Below, piece after piece: positions 5,288 to 61,054 of a DNA stretch of 64,000 nucleotides. The position numbers and the translations under genes are program-made. The notes beneath the pieces are model-generated. The model saw nothing but the letters and a program-made list of their open reading frames with translations, did no database searches and was not told where the DNA came from. Numbering within the stretch: position 1 is the first letter of the stretch; the number at the start of each line of letters is the position of its first letter. The stretch comes from Spirochaetia bacterium (GTDB lineage Bacteria; Spirochaetota; Spirochaetia; CADAEX01). Location: contig OY759746.1 of NCBI GenBank assembly GCA_963662795.1, forward strand, positions 2,976,001 through 3,040,000. Direction: 5' to 3'.

Positions 5288-6403
5288 TTATTTGCCCAGA
5301 CAGGATTTCAGCGCTTTCAGGATTTTATCAACATTTTCAGGACTTGAAGTATATCCCATAAGTCCTATTCTCCAGATTTTTCCCGCAAGGTCGCCGAGTC
5401 CTGCTCCTATTTCTATTTTAAATTCCTTGAGGAGCCTTGCCCTGACTGCAGCTTCATCAACTCCTTCCGGGACTATGACAGAGTTGAGTTCAGGAAGCCT
5501 GTATGCCTCTTCAACCAGCATTTTAAGCCCCAGTTCATCAAGTCCCTTAACCAGAAGTTTGTGATTTTTCATGTGGCGCGCATATACATTCTCTAGCCCT
5601 TCCTCAAGGACGACCTCAAGCGCCTGATACATGGCGTAAAGCATATTGATTGGCGCTGTGTGATGGTATACCCTTTTTGCCCCTTCCCAGTAATTAATAA
5701 TCATGGATAGATCAAGATACCAGTTGGGTACTTTCGTTTTTCTGGAAAGAAGTTTCTTTACTGCCCTATCAGAGAATGATACCGGTGATATACCGGGAGG
5801 GCAGGAGAGGCACTTCTGTGATCCGCTGTAAAGTGCGTCAATTCCCCAGTCGTCCATTCTGATCTCTATACCGCCCATGCTGGTTACTGTATCAACAAGG
5901 TATAGCGTCTCTTTTCCCTTAAGCAGGCTGCCGATTTCCGCCACAGGGTTTCTGACTCCTGTTGAGGTTTCAGCATGAACCACTGCAACAATTGAATAAT
6001 CATTTGCGGCAAGTTTTGACTTTACATCTTCTACAATAACCGGTGTTCCCCATTTGAAGGAAAGTGAATCCACATCAGCCCCGAGGCGGGTAGCGACATC
6101 GATCATTCTTTTTCCGAAAACCCCGTTTTCAAGTATCAGAACGCGGTCTCCCTTTTCAATAAGGTTTACAAAACAGGTTTCCATGCCTGCTGAACCGGTT
6201 CCTGACATCGGCACGGTGCATTTGTTTTTCGTGTTAAGAATAATCTGCATGTCTTTCTTCATGGCATCCATTATATCCATAAAGACTGGATCCATATGCC
6301 CAAGCGTGCTTACCGCAAGGGCTTTGTAAACCTCAGGGTGAACACAGGACGGGCCGGGTCCCATAAGCAGAATCTCCGGTACATTTTCAAGTTTATTAAC
6401 CAT
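5288..6403 (-). CDS. alanine-glyoxylate/serine-pyruvate aminotransferase (class V PLP)
   Basis: LLMGPGPS, SGTGSAGME, HAETSTG, SGSQKCLSCPPG (PLP Lys), YHHTAP, WRIGLMG. Confidence 0.92.
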   Translation of the reverse strand: MVNKLENVPEILLMGPGPSCVHPEVYKALAVSTLGHMDPVFMDIMDAMKKDMQIILNTKNKCTVPMSGTGSAGMETCFVNLIEKGDRVLILENGVFGKRMIDVATRLGADVDSLSFKWGTPVIVEDVKSKLAANDYSIVAVVHAETSTGVRNPVAEIGSLLKGKETLYLVDTVTSMGGIEIRMDDWGIDALYSGSQKCLSCPPGISPVSFSDRAVKKLLSRKTKVPNWYLDLSMIINYWEGAKRVYHHTAPINMLYAMYQALEVVLEEGLENVYARHMKNHKLLVKGLDELGLKMLVEEAYRLPELNSVIVPEGVDEAAVRARLLKEFKIEIGAGLGDLAGKIWRIGLMGYTSSPENVDKILKALKSCLGK

Positions 6404-53688: not shown

Positions 53689-53761
53689 GGGCCGCTAGCT
53701 CAGCTGGTAGAGCAACGCCCTTTTAAGGCGTGGGTCAATGGTTCGAATCCATTGCGGCTCA
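53689..53761 (+). tRNA. tRNA-Lys(TTT)
   Basis: cloverleaf with acceptor GGGCCGC/GCGGCTC, anticodon arm ACGCC-CTTTTAA-GGCGT, TTCGAAT T-loop; CCA not encoded. Confidence 0.97.
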
Positions 53762-53815: not shown

Positions 53816-53887
53816 GTCTCCTTCGTCTAGTGGTTAGGACAGTGGGTTTTCATCCCGCCAACAGGGGTTCGACTCCCCTAGGAGATA
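53816..53887 (+). tRNA. tRNA-Glu(TTC)
   Basis: cloverleaf with acceptor GTCTCCT/AGGAGAT, anticodon arm GTGGG-TTTTCAT-CCCGC, TTCGACT T-loop; CCA not encoded. Confidence 0.97.
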
Positions 53888-53893
53888 GTGATT

Positions 53894-53930
53894 TGGGGAT
53901 TTATCAAAACTGGTAAATCCCCATTTTTTT
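53894..53930 (+). terminator. rho-independent terminator of the tRNA operon
   Basis: TGGGGATTTATCA-AAAC-TGGTAAATCCCCA followed by T7. Confidence 0.88.
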
Positions 53931-54057: not shown

Positions 54058-54147
54058 TATATTTAAATGATAATTATTTAAAAATAAGTTGACAAATAAT
54101 TATTGCCAGGGTTAGAATGAATGATAATCATTTATATTTAAATGATA
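54058..54147 (+). promoter_or_regulatory. promoter bracketed by a 15-bp direct repeat
   Basis: TATATTTAAATGATA at 54058-54072 and 54133-54147; TTGACA(54089)-N18-TAGAAT between them. Confidence 0.6.
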
Positions 54148-54191
54148 CATGATTGTTTGACATCATGCATTTATCCTCAGAGGTTTGTTTT

Positions 54192-55304
54192 ATGGAAAAA
54201 AAAATGTTGTTTGCTCCTGGACCTGTTATTACTACTGAAAGAGTTAAAACAGCTGCTTTAATACCGGATATTTGCCACCGCAGCAAATATTTTGAAGAAA
54301 TATTATCTGAACTCCGGCCGAAAATACTGAAAATTTACAACTGTGACGATTCATATACTTCCGTAGTTATAAGCGGATCAGGAACCGCATCCAATGAATC
54401 GGTATATTCATCTCTTTGCGGCAGCAGTGATAAAGTATTGCTCATTACAAATGGTGAATTCGGAAACAGATTAAAAGATATTATCGAATGCTACAATATT
54501 AATTACAAAGAGCTGAAATATGAATGGGGAGAATATCCTGATTGTGAAGATATCGAAAAAATCCTGAAAACAGATAAAGAAATAACAATTGTCGGGATGG
54601 TTTGTCATGAGACCAGCACCGGAATAATCAATCCGGTGAAAGATGTTGGAAATTTATGCAAAAAATACAGTAAATTGTTTTTTCTTGATTCAATCAGCGC
54701 CGTCGGCGGAGAATACCTTGATTTCAGTGAGTATAATGTTGATGTGTGTACTGGAGTGCCGAATAAATGTGTCTCAGGGCATCCCGGTACTTCTTTTCTT
54801 GTCTTAAGAAAAAATCTGATACAAAAAGCCTATGATACAAAGCCCCGGAATATCTATTTAAATCTGGGGAGACATATAAAAATCGCTGAAGAAAAAAACC
54901 AGACCCCAAATACTCCTTCGGTAATAATGATTAATGTTTTACTCGAATCAATTAAAGAGCTGCTTGAAGAAGGAGTCGAAAACAGGATCAGAAGATATAA
55001 AAAACTGGCCCGGATAATACGAGATGGATTATCCGAAATGGGACTGGAAATATTTTTAACTGATCCTGCTCAGATGGCAAATACTGTTACAACAGTATAT
55101 CTACCCAAAAAAATACCAATGAATGTGTTTTTAACTGAAATGGAAAATGAAGGGTATGTATTTTACGATGGAAAAGGCGATCTGAAATCAAAAAATCTTT
55201 TTCAGATAGCAAATATGGGAAATCTTGACGAGAAAGACTGCCGCGAAATGTTAAAGGTACTGAAGAAGGTTTTGATAAAAAAATTCAATTATGAAGTTAC
55301 TTGA
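54192..55304 (+). CDS. PhnW-like class V PLP aminotransferase
   Basis: LFAPGP, DICHR, SGSGTA, NGEFG, HETSTG, DSISA, PNKC (PLP Lys), QTPNTP. Confidence 0.9.
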   Translation: MEKKMLFAPGPVITTERVKTAALIPDICHRSKYFEEILSELRPKILKIYNCDDSYTSVVISGSGTASNESVYSSLCGSSDKVLLITNGEFGNRLKDIIECYNINYKELKYEWGEYPDCEDIEKILKTDKEITIVGMVCHETSTGIINPVKDVGNLCKKYSKLFFLDSISAVGGEYLDFSEYNVDVCTGVPNKCVSGHPGTSFLVLRKNLIQKAYDTKPRNIYLNLGRHIKIAEEKNQTPNTPSVIMINVLLESIKELLEEGVENRIRRYKKLARIIRDGLSEMGLEIFLTDPAQMANTVTTVYLPKKIPMNVFLTEMENEGYVFYDGKGDLKSKNLFQIANMGNLDEKDCREMLKVLKKVLIKKFNYEVT

Positions 55305-55403
55305 TTTTTTGGCTATTAAAATTCTCATGTTTGAGAATTGAAATAAAATAGTTTGGGGGATTTTTATGAAAAAGATTTTTTATTTTTTTACTGGAGGTTT
55401 AAA

Positions 55404-56495
55404 ATGAAAAAAAAGTATCTAAGTCGTCTATTTTTAATTATCGGCATGGCAGCAATTGTAGCTTTTGCGGCTGTAACATTTACCGGCTGCGCCCAGAAAG
55501 CAGGAGGAAGTGAAACAGCACAGACAAAAAAAGATACAATCAAATGGCGCTTGCAGACATATGCCGGTCCATCAATGAATGATGATATTATTGGCAACAA
55601 AATCAAGGAATTTAACAAAATTGCTGACGGAGAGATGGTAATTGAGATGTTCGGAGCTGATCAGCTCGTCCCTCATGGAGAGTTATTTAACGCTGTTCAA
55701 AAAGGTACTATAGATATGGCAGTCAGCGATGATGAATCTATGGGCTCACCGGCGGATGTAGCAGTATTTTCCGCATATTTTCCAGCAGCCGGAAGAATTG
55801 GACTTGATATTGATGTTTTATGGAATCGTTACGGTTTGAATGAAATCTGGAAAGAAGCTTATGATGAGATTGATGGTGTTACCTGGCTTGCTCAGGGTAG
55901 TTGGGACCCTTGTCTTGTAGCTAGCAATAAACCAATTAGAAAAGTAGAAGATCTTAAAGGCTTAAGACTTTTTACTTCTCTTTTTAATGGAAAATTTCTT
56001 GAAGCAGAATATGGTGTTGTTCCTGTTGTAATGCCTGTGGAAGATGTTCAAATGGCACTCCAGACCGGAATGCTTGATGGTGTTACCTGGTCGGGTGCAA
56101 CTGAGCTTTACACAACAGGGATTGCTGATGTTTGTAAATATTTGCTGACCAATCCAATTTCCGGCGCATGGTCCGGGGGTTTCTTTGTAAATACAAAGTC
56201 ATGGGAAGCTGTTCCTGAACGCCTTCAGAGGCTGCTTCTTTTGACAATTGAAAGTTCGAACTATTACAGACTGAACTGGTATTGGTGGGGAGAAGCACGG
56301 TACAGAGCAGAAGGCAGCAAAATGGAGCTTACATCAATTCCTGACAGCCAGTGGACAGGCGTTGAAGTCCAGGCTAATAAATACTGGGATGAATTTTCCA
56401 AGAAAAGCCCAAGGTCAGCAAGAGTTATTGAAGCATTTAAAAAGTACTCAGCTATCAGAGAGAAAGCCGGTGCGCCTTACACCAGCGGTAAGTAA
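55404..56495 (+). CDS. TRAP substrate-binding lipoprotein, non-carboxylate (ethanolamine-binding-like) type
   Basis: lipobox FTGC; WRLQTYAG, ADQLVP, SWDPC, LKGLRLF (Phe at the usual Arg position), ISGAW, WYWWGEAR. Confidence 0.9.
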   Translation: MKKKYLSRLFLIIGMAAIVAFAAVTFTGCAQKAGGSETAQTKKDTIKWRLQTYAGPSMNDDIIGNKIKEFNKIADGEMVIEMFGADQLVPHGELFNAVQKGTIDMAVSDDESMGSPADVAVFSAYFPAAGRIGLDIDVLWNRYGLNEIWKEAYDEIDGVTWLAQGSWDPCLVASNKPIRKVEDLKGLRLFTSLFNGKFLEAEYGVVPVVMPVEDVQMALQTGMLDGVTWSGATELYTTGIADVCKYLLTNPISGAWSGGFFVNTKSWEAVPERLQRLLLLTIESSNYYRLNWYWWGEARYRAEGSKMELTSIPDSQWTGVEVQANKYWDEFSKKSPRSARVIEAFKKYSAIREKAGAPYTSGK

Positions 56496-56548: not shown

Positions 56549-56631
56549 TATAACACTGCCTTATTTTATTGCTGTTTATAAGGAATACGGCAGGGATTTT
56601 CAGTAAAACGACAAATGGAGGAGTGGAATTT

Positions 56632-57177
56632 TTGATTAACCCAATAAAAATTTACGTAAAGTCCATGGATTCAATAAGCATCCTGATAGGCAATATTGTA
56701 AAATTCCTTGTTTTGTTAATGATAGCTGTATTGGCTTATGAAGCTGTCTCAAGGAATATTTTTGGTAATTCCAATAAATGGTCTTTGGAGATAACTCAAT
56801 TTATTAACGGAACCTATTATTTGCTGGGCGGAGCTTATGTCTATCTTATAGGCGGGCATGTAAGAATGGATTTTTTTTATGAAAGATGGTCCCGAAGAAA
56901 AAAAGCCATTATCGATATTTGTACTTTTATATTAAGTTTGGCATATCTGACAGGTCTGTTAATTGGAGGGATTTCCAGTTCTTATTATGCGGTAAAATAC
57001 AATCAGACAAATTATTCGGCATGGGGCCCTCCTATAGCCCCAATGAAGATTATTGCTACAATAGGTATAATTTTAATGTTATTACAGAATATATCAGAAC
57101 TTATTAAGGATATCGTAATAGCTTTTGGCAAAGATAGTTCCTGGATAAAGAATTGGAGTATAGATAATGAGTTTTGA
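56632..57177 (+). CDS. TRAP small permease (DctQ)
   Basis: YEAVSR, WSLEIT, GHVRMD; 4 TM; TTG start after GGAGGAG. Confidence 0.92.
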   Translation: MINPIKIYVKSMDSISILIGNIVKFLVLLMIAVLAYEAVSRNIFGNSNKWSLEITQFINGTYYLLGGAYVYLIGGHVRMDFFYERWSRRKKAIIDICTFILSLAYLTGLLIGGISSSYYAVKYNQTNYSAWGPPIAPMKIIATIGIILMLLQNISELIKDIVIAFGKDSSWIKNWSIDNEF

Positions 57178-58486
57178 ATTTATTGCTTTATTAATGTTTC
57201 TTACGATGTTTGTTACACTTTTGTCGGGACGTCATATTTATGCCGTTATAGGCGGAGTCGCGGCTATTTTCTCAATAATACTTTGGGGAACCGGTGGAAT
57301 AGATATGGGGTACCATTCTGCTTTTAAGCTTATAAACTGGTATCCTTTGGTAACGCTGCCGATTTTTGTATTTATAGGGTATTTGTTTTCCGCATCAAAA
57401 ATATCTGAGGATTTGTACCGCCTGATTCATGTTTTAACAGGTCCTCTTAGGGGAGGATTGGCCATTGGTACCATTGTCCTGATGGCAATTATATCGGCAA
57501 TAAATGGTTTAAGTGTAGCAGGTATGAGTGTCGGAAGCAGTGTTGCCCTGCCGGAAATGCTGAAGAAGAATTATGATAAAAAAATGGTAACCGGAGTAAT
57601 TCAGGCGGGGAGCTCTCTTGGTATTCTGATTCCTCCCAGTGTAGTTCTTGTTCTCTATGGAATGATCGCAAGACAACCTGTGGGACATCTCTGGCTGGCA
57701 GGTGTTTTCCCCGGTCTTTTAATGTCTGCTTTATTTGTTCTTTATATTGTAGTCCGGTGCTGGTTTCAGCCGGAACTGGGACCGGTTTTGCCGAGGGAAG
57801 AATGGGATATACCTGTTATGGAAAAGGTAAAAGCTCTCAGGGGCGGATTACTTCCTTTATTTATAATATTGATGATGTCGGGACTTTTTTTACTGGGAGT
57901 AACCAGCCTTGTCGAAAGTTCAGCTATTGGGGCTATCGCAACAATAATTGCAGCAGGAATCAAGAAGCGGTTGAACTGGAAAATACTTAATAGCGTTTTA
58001 ACAAACACATTAAATGTCAGCGGCATGTTTATGTGGGTTGCCATGTCGGCAATGGCCTTTGCTGCAATTTTTGACGGACTTGGAGCTGTTCATGCGATAT
58101 CAACATTGTTTTTGAGTCATGGTTTTGGTCCAATTGGTACGATTATTGCTATGCAGGTTTCATTTTTATTATTAGGCACTTTCCTCGATGATACAGCCAT
58201 GTTGATTATAGTCGCTCCTTTATATATCCCTCTGGTGGTTACTTTAGGTTTTAATCCGATATGGTATGGTGTTCTTTATACGATAACCTGTCAGATAGCG
58301 TATCTTACACCGCCGTTTGGATATAATCTTTTTCTCATGAAGGCGATGGCTCCAAAGGAAATCAGTCTTAGTGATATCTATCGTTCTATTGTTCCTTTTA
58401 TATTTCTCATGATTTTAACGATAGTTATATTAATTATATTTCCGGAAATTGCTACCTGGTTACCTGATTTATATTTTTCGAAATAA
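57167..58486 (+). CDS. TRAP large permease (DctM)
   Basis: LVTLPIFVFIG, SSLGILIPPS, IAYLTPPFGYNLF. Confidence 0.95.
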   Translation: MSFEFIALLMFLTMFVTLLSGRHIYAVIGGVAAIFSIILWGTGGIDMGYHSAFKLINWYPLVTLPIFVFIGYLFSASKISEDLYRLIHVLTGPLRGGLAIGTIVLMAIISAINGLSVAGMSVGSSVALPEMLKKNYDKKMVTGVIQAGSSLGILIPPSVVLVLYGMIARQPVGHLWLAGVFPGLLMSALFVLYIVVRCWFQPELGPVLPREEWDIPVMEKVKALRGGLLPLFIILMMSGLFLLGVTSLVESSAIGAIATIIAAGIKKRLNWKILNSVLTNTLNVSGMFMWVAMSAMAFAAIFDGLGAVHAISTLFLSHGFGPIGTIIAMQVSFLLLGTFLDDTAMLIIVAPLYIPLVVTLGFNPIWYGVLYTITCQIAYLTPPFGYNLFLMKAMAPKEISLSDIYRSIVPFIFLMILTIVILIIFPEIATWLPDLYFSK

Positions 58487-58509: not shown

Positions 58510-60009
58510 ATGAACGAATATATTTTATCAATAGACCAGGGAACAACTGCTACAAAAGTGGTCCTCTACACCTTAAATGGGGATATTATGGCAATAAGCA
58601 CTCAGCCTGTTAAGCAGTATTATCCTCAGGACGGATGGGTGGAGCATGATCCCTATAATATCCTTGATTCCATAAAAATTGGAATCAGGGATATATTATG
58701 CAAAACTGAAATAACGAAAGATCAAATACTCGCTATTGGAATAGATAATCAGGGCGAAACAATAATTCCTTTTGATCGAAAAACCGGGGAACCATTATAT
58801 AATGCCATAGTCTGGCAGGATAGAAGGACCAGTCAATTCTGCAACCGGATGAAAGATGTTCTTGATGAAGCAATTATTACAGAAAAGACAGGGTTATTCC
58901 TTGATCCCTATTTTTCAGCACCCAAAATGAACTGGCTGATAAAAAACGTTGATAAAGTGAAAGAATCAATCAATAAAGGAAACGCAGTTATTGCAACATC
59001 GGATGTGTGGTTGTTGTATATGATAACAGGCAGACAATCGATAATGACTGATGTTACAACAGCTTCGAGAACATTATTGTTCAATATCAACGAATTGCAA
59101 TGGGATAATGAACTACTGGAATTATTTGAAATTCCTGAAAATGTGCTGCCGAAAATAGTGCCGTCTTCCTGGTTTTTTGGATTATCTGACCCTTCGGTAT
59201 GCGAAGGAATATCTGCACCTATTCATTCATCTGTGGTAGATCAGCAGGCTTCTCTTTTTGGCCACACGTGTTTTAATAAAGGAGAAGCCAAGATTACTTA
59301 CGGTACAGGAGGATTCCTGTTACTTAACACGGGTAAAGAAAGACTGAAATTAAATGACAGGATTTCTACAACAATTGCAGCTCAATATAATGATGAGATA
59401 AATTATGCCATAGACGGCGGAGTATATTGTGTCGCGTCCTGTATAAACTGGCTTATTAACGAATTGAAAATTGTATCCAGTCCGCAGGAATTAAGTGAGA
59501 TAAAATTTGATTTAAAAAATCCCTGCAGCACCTATTTTGTTCCATCAATGGCCGGTATTTCTGCACCATACTGGAAATCCGACTTGAAAGGAGCTTTTTT
59601 AGGATTATCACTTAATACAGGAGGGAATGATTTAATCAGGGCCATGATAGAGGGTATTGCCTACAGGTTTATGGATCTTGTTGAAATTATCAGAAATAAC
59701 GGGTTCGGGGAAATCTCATCAATATCTGTTGACGGCGGGGTAAGCAGAAATGATTTTCTTATGCAGTACCAGTCTGATCTTCTGGGTGTGAAAATGCAGA
59801 GACCTGCTGTACGTGAAACAACTTCACTGGGTTCTTTTTATCTGGCTGGATTGAAAACCGGAATATGGAATGATGTGAAGTCATTAAAAGAGAAAAAAGT
59901 AGATGAAAAAATATTTATACCGGAAAGTAATAATTCAGAAATAATACAAAACTATATAATATGGCAGAAAGCAGTAAAAGCAATTATTAACTGGCATGAT
60001 AGTTTTTAA
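58510..60009 (+). CDS. FGGY family kinase, glycerol kinase-like with an altered substrate site
   Basis: IDQGTT, GWVEHDP, AIVWQDRRT, DPYFSAPK, DQQASLFG, KITYGTG, VDGG; DNQGET replaces TNQRET. Confidence 0.9.
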   Translation: MNEYILSIDQGTTATKVVLYTLNGDIMAISTQPVKQYYPQDGWVEHDPYNILDSIKIGIRDILCKTEITKDQILAIGIDNQGETIIPFDRKTGEPLYNAIVWQDRRTSQFCNRMKDVLDEAIITEKTGLFLDPYFSAPKMNWLIKNVDKVKESINKGNAVIATSDVWLLYMITGRQSIMTDVTTASRTLLFNINELQWDNELLELFEIPENVLPKIVPSSWFFGLSDPSVCEGISAPIHSSVVDQQASLFGHTCFNKGEAKITYGTGGFLLLNTGKERLKLNDRISTTIAAQYNDEINYAIDGGVYCVASCINWLINELKIVSSPQELSEIKFDLKNPCSTYFVPSMAGISAPYWKSDLKGAFLGLSLNTGGNDLIRAMIEGIAYRFMDLVEIIRNNGFGEISSISVDGGVSRNDFLMQYQSDLLGVKMQRPAVRETTSLGSFYLAGLKTGIWNDVKSLKEKKVDEKIFIPESNNSEIIQNYIIWQKAVKAIINWHDSF

Positions 60010-60115
60010 ATCTGAATATGCTTTAATAATTTTAACAACCTTTTTATCTGAAAATTCAGGGTTTCAGACTTGGCAACATTTATCAGTTCTATATAATTAC
60101 TGAAGGTTGGGATCT

Positions 60116-61054
60116 ATGAACATCGAACATCTTAAAATTTTTTATTATACTGCGAAATTTAAAAATTTTACTAAAGCTGCTGAATTTTTAAATATTACTC
60201 AACCGTCTGTAACAAGACTGATCTATGAATTCCAGGATAAACTTGGCCTTGTTTTGATTAATAAAAACGGAAAAAGCTTTGTACTGACAGATCCCGGTAA
60301 AAAAATTTATGAAATGGCTGAAAAAATATTTGAAATAGAATTAAAAATTGAAGAATGCGTCAGAGACATAAAACAGCAGAAATCAGGAATTATAAATATA
60401 TTAACAACAGAGACATACGGCGCTCATTTTATGCCGGAATTTCTGGTTGAATACAAGAGGCTGTATCCCGGAATTTTATTAAATGTAACAACCTTGCCCA
60501 ATGATCAGGTAGTTGAACTTACAAGCCATCTTGAATGTGATTTCGGAATTATATCAAAAAAACTTAAAAACCAGAAATTACTTGTAAAAAATCTTCTTGA
60601 GGAAAAAATTGTTCTTATATCGGCGCCTGGTAAACCTCTGGCGAAACGAAAGGAATTAAGCCCTCAGGAAGTAAACAATCTTCCAATTATTTTGTTTGAA
60701 GAAGAATGCGGCACAAACGAAGCTGTCATGAAATTCAAGAAAAAAAATAATCTGGAATTCGATGTAAGATGTATATTTTCCAACAGCGAATCAGTAAAAA
60801 GCCTTGTGAAAAAAGGACTTGGGTACGCGTTTATATCAAGAAATGTTATTAAAAATGAGGTTGCCAGAAATGAACTTGTTGAAATCAACGTACTTGATGA
60901 GACTCTTGTAAGGCAGTTTTATATTATTTATCATAAAGAAAAATATATCTCCAATACATTAAAGACTTTTATTGATATCATGATTGAGTGGTCTGATAAA
61001 TATACAGAAAAAATAAAACAGGAAATAACACGAATTAATTTAAAAAAGTCATAA
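60116..61054 (+). CDS. LysR family transcriptional regulator
   Basis: NFTKAAEFLNITQPSVT HTH; LTDPG; about 312 aa. Confidence 0.94.
   Translation: MNIEHLKIFYYTAKFKNFTKAAEFLNITQPSVTRLIYEFQDKLGLVLINKNGKSFVLTDPGKKIYEMAEKIFEIELKIEECVRDIKQQKSGIINILTTETYGAHFMPEFLVEYKRLYPGILLNVTTLPNDQVVELTSHLECDFGIISKKLKNQKLLVKNLLEEKIVLISAPGKPLAKRKELSPQEVNNLPIILFEEECGTNEAVMKFKKKNNLEFDVRCIFSNSESVKSLVKKGLGYAFISRNVIKNEVARNELVEINVLDETLVRQFYIIYHKEKYISNTLKTFIDIMIEWSDKYTEKIKQEITRINLKKS

Follow-up and report, generated by a model that had tools for sequence, protein, structure and literature searches.

An FGGY-family kinase gene in a 64,000-nucleotide stretch of a Spirochaetia bacterium genome (GenBank assembly GCA_963662795.1, contig OY759746.1, positions 2,976,001 to 3,040,000; this whole stretch is called the window) encodes a relative of the glycerol kinase GlpK in which the motif TNQRET has become DNQGET. 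Sequence comparison supports the existence of a GlpK-derived FGGY subfamily, bearing DNQGET, whose active site has changed in a coordinated manner. Conserved gene context and this coordinated change together support an amine-type substrate, and we consider that the substrate of the kinase probably does carry an amine. More specifically, the window gene quite possibly encodes a kinase for a small amino-alcohol instead of glycerol, with serinol as the most likely candidate, and its phosphorylated product would end as a triose phosphate.

Counted from its ATG start, the kinase has 499 residues, the length of its closest database relative, P0001 (93% identity). The earlier note on this DNA, made from the letters alone, had described a charge-reversed substrate motif alongside other GlpK motifs that are intact. 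Translation of the plus strand does give DNQGET, in the context AIGIDNQGETIIPF, and the reverse strand of 58744-58761 has no meaningful translation. The remaining GlpK motifs (DQGTT, YFS, DQQA, YGTG) are present in the same protein as DQGTTATK, DPYFSAPK, VVDQQASLF and TYGTGGF. The best solved relative is E. coli GlpK (PDB 1bo5, E 2.4e-131, about 45% identity); the alignment is collinear, window residue n corresponding to residue n+1 of the 1bo5 chain. D79 and G82 of the window kinase thus fall on T80 and R83, while E84, W103, Y135, D245, Q246 and F270 are all retained (E. coli numbering, used below unless stated).

Arg83, Glu84, Tyr135 and Asp245 hydrogen-bond glycerol and Phe270 packs on it, according to PMC3245297 and PMC2680290, which bear out the role that the note had given to Arg83 and Glu84. 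These five residues are identical across all glycerol-kinase clusters covered in PMC3245297. In PfGK, Arg83 forms a salt bridge with Glu306; the hinge glutamate pairs with Arg83, closing the domains in canonical enzymes (PMC2680290).

Two Pfam domains place the protein in the FGGY superfamily (PF00370, FGGY_N, 214 bits; PF02782, FGGY_C, 102 bits). It does not reach the cut-off of the GlpK equivalog model TIGR01311 (529.3 against 590.35 bits), and it has four of the five GlpK signature residues Arg83, Glu84, Tyr135, Asp245 and Phe270, the arginine being glycine. The glycerol-utilisation context of GlpF, GlpP and glycerol-3-phosphate (G3P) dehydrogenase is lacking as well: its operon holds an aminotransferase, a transport system of the tripartite ATP-independent periplasmic (TRAP) type and a LysR regulator. 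In all, three of the four testable marks of GlpK membership are absent. The score below the TIGR01311 cut-off, the missing Arg83 and a canonical paralogue in the same genome make the automated glpK label doubtful, as had been suspected from the motif. Chance or a sequencing artefact is ruled out by the preservation of the motif in relatives of 34-93% identity, and a pseudogene or plain loss of function by the intact frame and the complete set of ATP and catalytic motifs.

The altered motif is shared by many homologues. Among the best 120 database relatives of the window kinase, P0001-P0047 bear [IV](D)NQGET[IV]I.F, P0048-56 and P0066 have S/A-NQGET, and the remainder are canonical TNQRET proteins. 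A degenerate DNA pattern for xDNQGET[IV][IV], run against one genome per prokaryotic species, matched at least 120 stretches; among the matches listed, 105 of 120 contain an FGGY open reading frame with DNQGET, and 15 contain no kinase match. The 105 are 34-46% identical to the window kinase, except for one short fragment (L090) at 72%. Sources among the matches listed include Clostridia (with Clostridioides difficile), Bacteroidaceae, Desulfobacterales, Alpha- and Betaproteobacteria, a Spirochaetia metagenome-assembled genome (MAG), Chloroflexia, Bathyarchaeia and others. Four of the 15 without an FGGY match belong to a single bacterial family (Reyranella and Reyranellaceae contigs L007, L019, L021, L054), where a different protein may carry the same peptide.

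We aligned 145 sequences: 109 with D/E-NQGE, 25 canonical and 11 with S/A-NQGE. In the D/E-NQGE group G83 is found in 109/109 and D80 in 108/109; the canonical group has R83 in 25/25. Nine further columns part the two groups with almost no overlap. The group-separating changes include, besides T80->D and R83->G, R17->K/T, N185->T, G244->V, E303->D, S305->G, F307->Y and R369->L/G. E84, W103, Y135, D245, Q246 and F270 are invariant in both groups. The proposal that DNQGE marks an FGGY subfamily thus stands, on the strength of the pattern matches and the shared group-specific residues. The S/A-NQGE proteins have all the changes of the D/E-NQGE group save D80 and add Q247->P.

This S/A-NQGET clade (P0048-P0056 and P0066, metagenomic; also L083:9763-11286) reads 'DQPAALF', with proline at glycerol-contact position 247, and may have yet another specificity; the DNQGET kinase of C. 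difficile likewise has DQP.

In a FastTree phylogeny (LG model, midpoint-rooted, without an outgroup, hence giving no direction between NQGE and NQRE), the NQGE sequences fall into a number of deep branches. These are the query clade, the S/A-NQGE clade, one made up mostly of Proteobacteria, Bathyarchaeia, and Clostridia/Bacteroidaceae, the last adjoining canonical kinases. Members of the query clade were found in only 2 of 400 sampled other genomes of the phylum. Alignments of seven of the 29 distinct solved GlpK sequences were viewed: the top five PDB matches at motif level, and those that score best over the full length of the window and C. difficile kinases. All seven are NQRET, and no solved NQGE glycerol kinase was seen among them.

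The genome of the window (3.93 Mb, one contig) also encodes a canonical GlpK (GIANQRETTVVW), 40% identical to the window kinase and adjoining an iron-type alcohol dehydrogenase gene. Four of five other complete genomes with a DNQGET kinase likewise have a canonical NQRET GlpK elsewhere, making five of six with the window genome; in the remaining one, G402, the query used gave no match at E <= 1e-80.

The neighbours of DNQGET kinases were clustered and the clusters named with Pfam and NCBIfam. Families lying within 6 kb of the kinase were next counted by means of blastp probes, at E <= 1e-15 and a coverage of 50% or more. This count comprises 69 NQGET loci, 66 from the pattern scan (>3 kb) plus L156, L157 and the window, with L046 and L047 left out. 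Two control sets were used: 17 canonical NQRET loci of the window's own phylum (L168 left out) and 42 canonical loci from a metagenome scan.

Several layouts recur. Clostridia have DeoR - EutH - kinase - DAO - PNDR - DUF1667. Bacteroidaceae and Anaerovoracaceae show APC permease / AraC - kinase - class-V aminotransferase, towards which a HisJ-family PHP phosphatase gene is convergent; C. difficile has a variant of this layout. The order is class-V aminotransferase - PotD-like ABC - kinase in Desulfobacterales; APC or OpuAC-ABC - DAO - PNDR - kinase in Alphaproteobacteria; and kinase - class-IV aminotransferase - APC in Bathyarchaeia. The Spirochaetia MAG locus L065, with aminotransferase - EtoX-TRAP - kinase - LysR, has a gene order identical to that of the window.

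Among enzymes, the 69 NQGET loci contain a class-V aminotransferase in 15, a class-IV one in 2, DAO in 45, PNDR in 38, DUF1667 in 12 and PHP in 6. Among transporters, they contain an EtoX-like solute-binding protein in 4, EutH in 12, APC in 13, a PotD-like protein in 6 and OpuAC in 4. Any amine-type transporter is present in 39 of the 69, an aminotransferase or DAO partner in 62, and neither class in two. The glycerol facilitator family MIP and the G3P antiterminator GlpP were each found within 6 kb in 0 of the 69. The controls differ: neither an aminotransferase nor an amine-type transporter occurs in any of the 17 phylum loci (DAO 7, MIP 1, GlpP 1) or the 42 metagenome loci (DAO 3, MIP 1), so that amine-type transporters stand at 39/69 against 0/59. 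Two metagenome DNQGET loci, L176 (72% identity) and L177 (93%), both have an aminotransferase and an EtoX-like solute-binding protein upstream. Within the query clade (the window, L065, L176, L177, L156, L157 and L052) the class-V aminotransferase occurs in six of seven loci and the EtoX-like TRAP system in five of seven. The neighbourhoods, with their amine-type transporters, an aminotransferase or FngA-like partner and no MIP, are consistent with the note's idea of a protonated amine as substrate.

Other genes accompany the kinases in particular lineages. A HisJ-family PHP phosphatase (TIGR01856, 154 bits) is convergent to the kinase-aminotransferase pair in L025, L031 (6507-7352), L032, L072, L081 and L082, six loci of Bacteroidaceae and Clostridia. 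The known substrate of the HisJ family, histidinol phosphate, is a 2-amino-propyl phosphate, and it is possible that the PHP enzyme is an amino-propyl-phosphate phosphatase. In eight Hyphomicrobiales-type loci (L017, L029, L030, L039, L048, L049, L084, L085) the opposite strand encodes a GNAT acetyltransferase immediately downstream of the kinase; seven of these also have an ornithine/diaminopimelate-decarboxylase-like pyridoxal-phosphate (PLP) enzyme and six a CDP-alcohol-phosphatidyltransferase-like protein. Genes for an MttB-family methyltransferase and an OpuAC ABC system are also found near Hyphomicrobiales-type kinases. In the query clade, a protein with an octopine-dehydrogenase domain and a member of the transaldolase/fructose-6-phosphate-aldolase family come after the kinase-aminotransferase pair of L156 (10867-13455), and the TRAP system of this locus is of the TAXI type (NMT1_3 and a fused DctM).

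The aminotransferase of the window is nearest to 2-aminoethylphosphonate:pyruvate aminotransferase, PhnW, and stays below all PhnW cut-offs (TIGR03301 PhnW-AepZ, 299.5 against 360.8; TIGR02326, 228.8 against 400.8; NF010006, 235.4 against 296). In the PDB it comes closest to PhnW (9kk8/1m32, E about 1e-47) and to a serine-pyruvate aminotransferase from an archaeon (3zrp, E 2.8e-45). Homologues with 43-57% identity adjoin DNQGET kinases in other phyla. A role in aminoethylphosphonate catabolism was rejected, as the genome (98% complete) has no phosphonatase above the cut-off (best TIGR01422 score 109.7 against 220 bits), and so was one in phosphonate biosynthesis, the three phosphoenolpyruvate (PEP)-mutase-like genes lying 0.5-2.4 Mb from the window. 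Those genes (G000:C1:588367-589215, 1470102-1470959 and 2493146-2493958; scores of 405, 319 and 293 bits, cut-off 319.55) hint at phosphonate production by the organism. A second class-V aminotransferase, 28% identical to the operon enzyme, is encoded in the window at about 5291-6373 on the minus strand, and a third, 31% identical, elsewhere in the genome.

We now propose a pathway for the window operon. The EtoX-type TRAP system would bring in a 2-amino-alcohol, and the kinase would phosphorylate a hydroxymethyl group. In the pocket, the substrate ammonium may stand in for the guanidinium of Arg83 amid Asp79, Glu83 and Asp302 (the last two being Glu84 and Glu303 in E. coli), perhaps contacting Asp79, and could complete the same ion-pair network on domain closure. 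The PhnW-like class-V aminotransferase would act last, by the step order that we infer, stripping the amine from the phospho-ester to give a triose phosphate. In other lineages an FngA/GlpA-like flavoprotein would take the place of the aminotransferase and deaminate oxidatively. The likeliest chemistry would run from serinol (2-amino-1,3-propanediol) through serinol phosphate to dihydroxyacetone phosphate (DHAP); alternatively, 3-amino-1,2-propanediol phosphate would yield glyceraldehyde 3-phosphate.

Two considerations favour a three-carbon substrate. As the minimal modules conserve no other enzyme of catabolism, what the route yields should already belong to central metabolism, which points to a C3 amino-diol giving DHAP or glyceraldehyde 3-phosphate. 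Of the glycerol contacts the site has lost Arg83 alone; it has gained Asp80 and still has Glu84 as well as an acid at 303, a pattern that fits a glycerol-sized pocket where acids replace one hydroxyl contact. The conversion of serinol phosphate to DHAP retains the C2 chemistry of that of G3P to DHAP, and transamination between DHAP and serinol phosphate is known and reversible (RtxA; PMC3222319). A C3 amino-diol, serinol first, that ends in triose phosphate is our preferred substrate, a choice that we hold tentatively. It is possible, and we advance this with greater reserve, that a two-enzyme route from serinol or a close C3 amino-diol to triose phosphate, with ammonium replacing Arg83 and with deamination by a PhnW-like aminotransferase or else by an FngA/GlpA-like flavoprotein, is widespread in at least 100 species, ranging over Spirochaetota, Clostridia (Clostridioides difficile among them), Bacteroidaceae, Desulfobacterales, Alphaproteobacteria and Bathyarchaeia.

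The window binding protein matches PDB 4uab and 4xf5, the latter presumably holding 2-amino-1-propanol, with E 9e-111 (374 bits, residues 58-377); the next match is at E 2e-15. 4UAB is Csal_0678 with ethanolamine held by the platform residue Glu220 and aromatic side chains (PMC12410723), an atypical cation-binding TRAP protein without the carboxylate-binding arginine, the Arg147 equivalent (PMC4646407, PMC5812351). The glutamate of the motif T-E-x-Y, at about residue 222 in members of 350 residues, is invariant in 105/105 matched homologues and kept in the window protein; from its position, with an assumed offset in numbering, it is probably the platform Glu220 of Csal_0678. Ethanolamine-binding sites often take serinol and L-alaninol too, with Kd values of 1.3, 3.2 and 15.9 µM for CqsR (PMC12410723).

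A rival reading is a kinase for ethanolamine, or for another mono-hydroxy amino-alcohol such as alaninol or aminopropanol, the adjacent PLP enzyme then acting on the phosphoethanolamine by transamination, oxidation or elimination. Ethanolamine is bound by the closest solved relative of the binding protein, Phaeobacter EtoX has a Kd for it of 7.9 µM (PMC10132767), EutH is the transporter in 12 of the 69 loci, and the aminotransferase has as its nearest family PhnW, whose substrate bears a terminal CH2-NH2 beside a phosphorus group. It is also far more abundant in nature than serinol. We nevertheless regard this alternative, a serious one in view of that abundance and of the transporter names, as unlikely. 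Transaminated or oxidised by a flavin enzyme, phosphoethanolamine would end as glycolaldehyde phosphate, a compound outside central metabolism, and the modules have no conserved follow-up enzyme; the triol-holding pocket of GlpK is conserved save Arg83, and the change of arginine to glycine widens the pocket rather than shrinking it; and a lyase role of the PLP enzyme could not be taken over by the flavoprotein of other lineages.

DAO, PNDR and DUF1667 together make up the architecture of FngABC, an electron-bifurcating glycerol-3-phosphate oxidoreductase encoded beside glycerol kinase in Pyrococcus, Thermotoga and Acetobacterium (October 2026; PMC13689815). The FngA-like proteins themselves differ between kinase types: in the 45 beside DNQGET kinases, which come from several phyla, compared with 12 beside canonical ones, G107A occurs in 43/45, Y226F in 44/45, F242L in 44/45 and P340T in 45/45 (L160 numbering; example L012:5894-7306). 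Their transporters are EutH, APC or OpuAC, never MIP. These fixed substitutions suggest a co-adapted change of substrate.

It is distinctly unlikely, in our judgement, that the pocket is a mere variant which leaves the enzyme a glycerol (or glycerol/dihydroxyacetone) kinase, its amine-type neighbours being co-located and no more. The overall identity to E. coli GlpK, the four retained signature residues and a score above the cut-off of NF000756 would fit such an enzyme, as would the DeoR/GlpR-type regulators of the clostridial loci and the fact that G3P oxidoreductase genes of FngABC type (PMC13689815) are the commonest DNQGET neighbours. Against it stand the identity of Arg83 across the characterised GlpK clusters (PMC3245297) and the seven NQRET alignments of solved GlpK, the coexisting canonical GlpK in five of six complete genomes, the absence of MIP and of the antiterminator from all 69 loci, the transporter contrast with the controls, and the fixed differences of the FngA-like partners (Y226F, F242L, P340T, G107A). 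A reversed order, in which the aminotransferase deaminates the free amino-alcohol (serinol to dihydroxyacetone, for instance) before the kinase phosphorylates this neutral carbonyl product, would also end at DHAP with no further enzyme needed, and E. coli-type GlpK is reported to phosphorylate dihydroxyacetone in some bacteria (PMC11962113), but this order is very unlikely: a neutral ketone gives no reason to lose Arg83, gain Asp80 and keep two further acids, the nearest relatives of the aminotransferase use phosphonate- or carboxylate-anchored substrates, and DeoR-type regulators, found in the sister loci, usually sense phosphorylated intermediates.

Several observations weigh against an amino-alcohol kinase with serinol as substrate. 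Serinol is not known to be abundant in the environment, whereas ethanolamine is, and the names of both EtoX and EutH refer to ethanolamine transport. The looser GlpK subfamily model NF000756 accepts the window kinase (558 against a cut-off of 498 bits), and clostridial DNQGET kinases even exceed the GlpK equivalog cut-off (655 and 633 against 590 bits). The commonest partner, DAO (45/69, with PNDR in 38 and DUF1667 in 12), is G3P-dehydrogenase-like in its FngABC architecture, and the same trio flanks 7 of the 17 canonical GlpKs from the window's phylum. Four DNQGET loci also have CoxG-like proteins, the kind that in Sulfolobus anchors a GlpA-like G3P dehydrogenase (PMC11962113). Finally, the genomes behind the context counts are related and the counts not independent, many contigs are short, and the counts are given without a significance test; the canonical controls represent one phylum and metagenome contigs of uneven length.

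In the window, the aminotransferase, DctPQM, kinase and LysR genes all lie on the plus strand with gaps of -11 to 97 nt (Table 1). The LysR protein, which holds the same position in L065, is likely the regulator of the operon. The promoter-like site before the aminotransferase is the best of the region, yet such sites are no commoner than in shuffled sequence (35 found, 29.5 expected). The two tRNA genes and the hairpin occupy the 600-nt gap from an MtaB-like gene to the operon.

Table 1. Features of the kinase operon and the adjoining upstream gap (window coordinates).
Feature	Position	Strand	Remarks
Two tRNA genes	53689-53761, 53816-53887	+	Rfam 68.7 and 57.7 bits
Terminator-like hairpin, 13 pairs	53894-53923	+	After the two tRNA genes
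Promoter-like site, TTGACA-18-TAGAAT, 11 of 12	54089..54118	+	35 nt upstream of aminotransferase; consensus match alone
Class-V (PhnW/AGXT-like) aminotransferase	54153..55304	+	Pfam Aminotran_5
TRAP solute-binding protein DctP, EtoX/Csal_0678 type	55353..56495	+	Likely true start 55404 (363-aa form, P0121)
TRAP small membrane subunit DctQ	56569..57177	+	Pfam DctQ
TRAP large membrane subunit DctM	57167..58486	+	Pfam DctM, 227 bits
FGGY kinase, GlpK-derived, 499 aa, proposed amino-alcohol kinase	58510..60009 (ATG)	+	Alternative TTG start 58498
DNQGET motif: Asp79 (E. coli Thr80), Gly82 (E. coli Arg83)	58744..58761	+	Translation, alignment
DGGVY segment (E. coli 303-307, EGAVF)	59413..59427	+	Group-specific E303D, S305G, F307Y at hinge
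LysR-family regulator	60107..61054	+	Own promoter-like site 60070-60097

Full-text literature searches, mostly outside subscription journals, found no paper on a characterised DNQGET-type kinase and, among the papers listed, none that speaks of a serinol kinase or of serinol catabolism, utilisation or degradation. GlpK has been held up as the FGGY group of unchanged specificity (PMC3245297). If the proposal is true, a large sister group of GlpK has changed specificity while annotation pipelines call its members glycerol kinase, and a mis-annotation that runs systematically through genomes of gut, soil and marine origin could be corrected. It would add a cobalamin-independent amino-alcohol route without gamma-glutamyl intermediates, for which the signature D80/G83/V244/D303/G305/Y307 would be a ready search handle. 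Free C3 amino-alcohols would then be a far commoner nutrient than recognised, and the origin of the substrate in the gut and in sediments would become a question.

Set against known systems, the window kinase shares with E. coli GlpK (PDB 1BO5/1GLF; TIGR01311) the two-domain FGGY fold, the length, DQGTT, D245-Q246, GTG, the W103/F270 sandwich, Y135 and E84. It differs in Arg83->Gly, in Thr80->Asp and in another seven fixed changes, in its sub-equivalog score, in being a paralogue of a canonical GlpK and in lacking a GlpF/GlpD/GlpP context. The binding protein is a close homologue of EtoX/Csal_0678 of Phaeobacter and Chromohalobacter, an amino-alcohol importer in an otherwise anion-specific class (PMC5812351). 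Downstream, however, the EtoX/Csal_0678 pathway uses a glutamine-synthetase-like gamma-glutamylase and dehydrogenases, where the window has a kinase and an aminotransferase, and the ligand in the window may be serinol rather than ethanolamine. PhnW is the nearest family of the aminotransferase, and the proposed substrate would likewise be a small amine with a phosphorus anchor; the window enzyme differs in scoring below the PhnW cut-offs, in the want of a phosphonatase above cut-off in the genome, and in being encoded with a kinase and an amino-alcohol importer.

The N-domain of Bradyrhizobium RtxA, a DHAP:serinol-phosphate aminotransferase, catalyses the proposed second enzymatic step in reverse (PMC3222319). 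RtxA-type enzymes are biosynthetic and involve no kinase, and their likeness to the class-V enzyme of the window is one of reaction. Cj1437 of Campylobacter is another DHAP:serinol-phosphate aminotransferase. Finally, sister DNQGET operons share the layout of GlpK with FngABC, namely a kinase with FngA/B/C-like genes (PMC13689815), but have EutH, APC or OpuAC in place of GlpF and fixed substitutions in the FngA-like protein, and the window operon has an aminotransferase instead.

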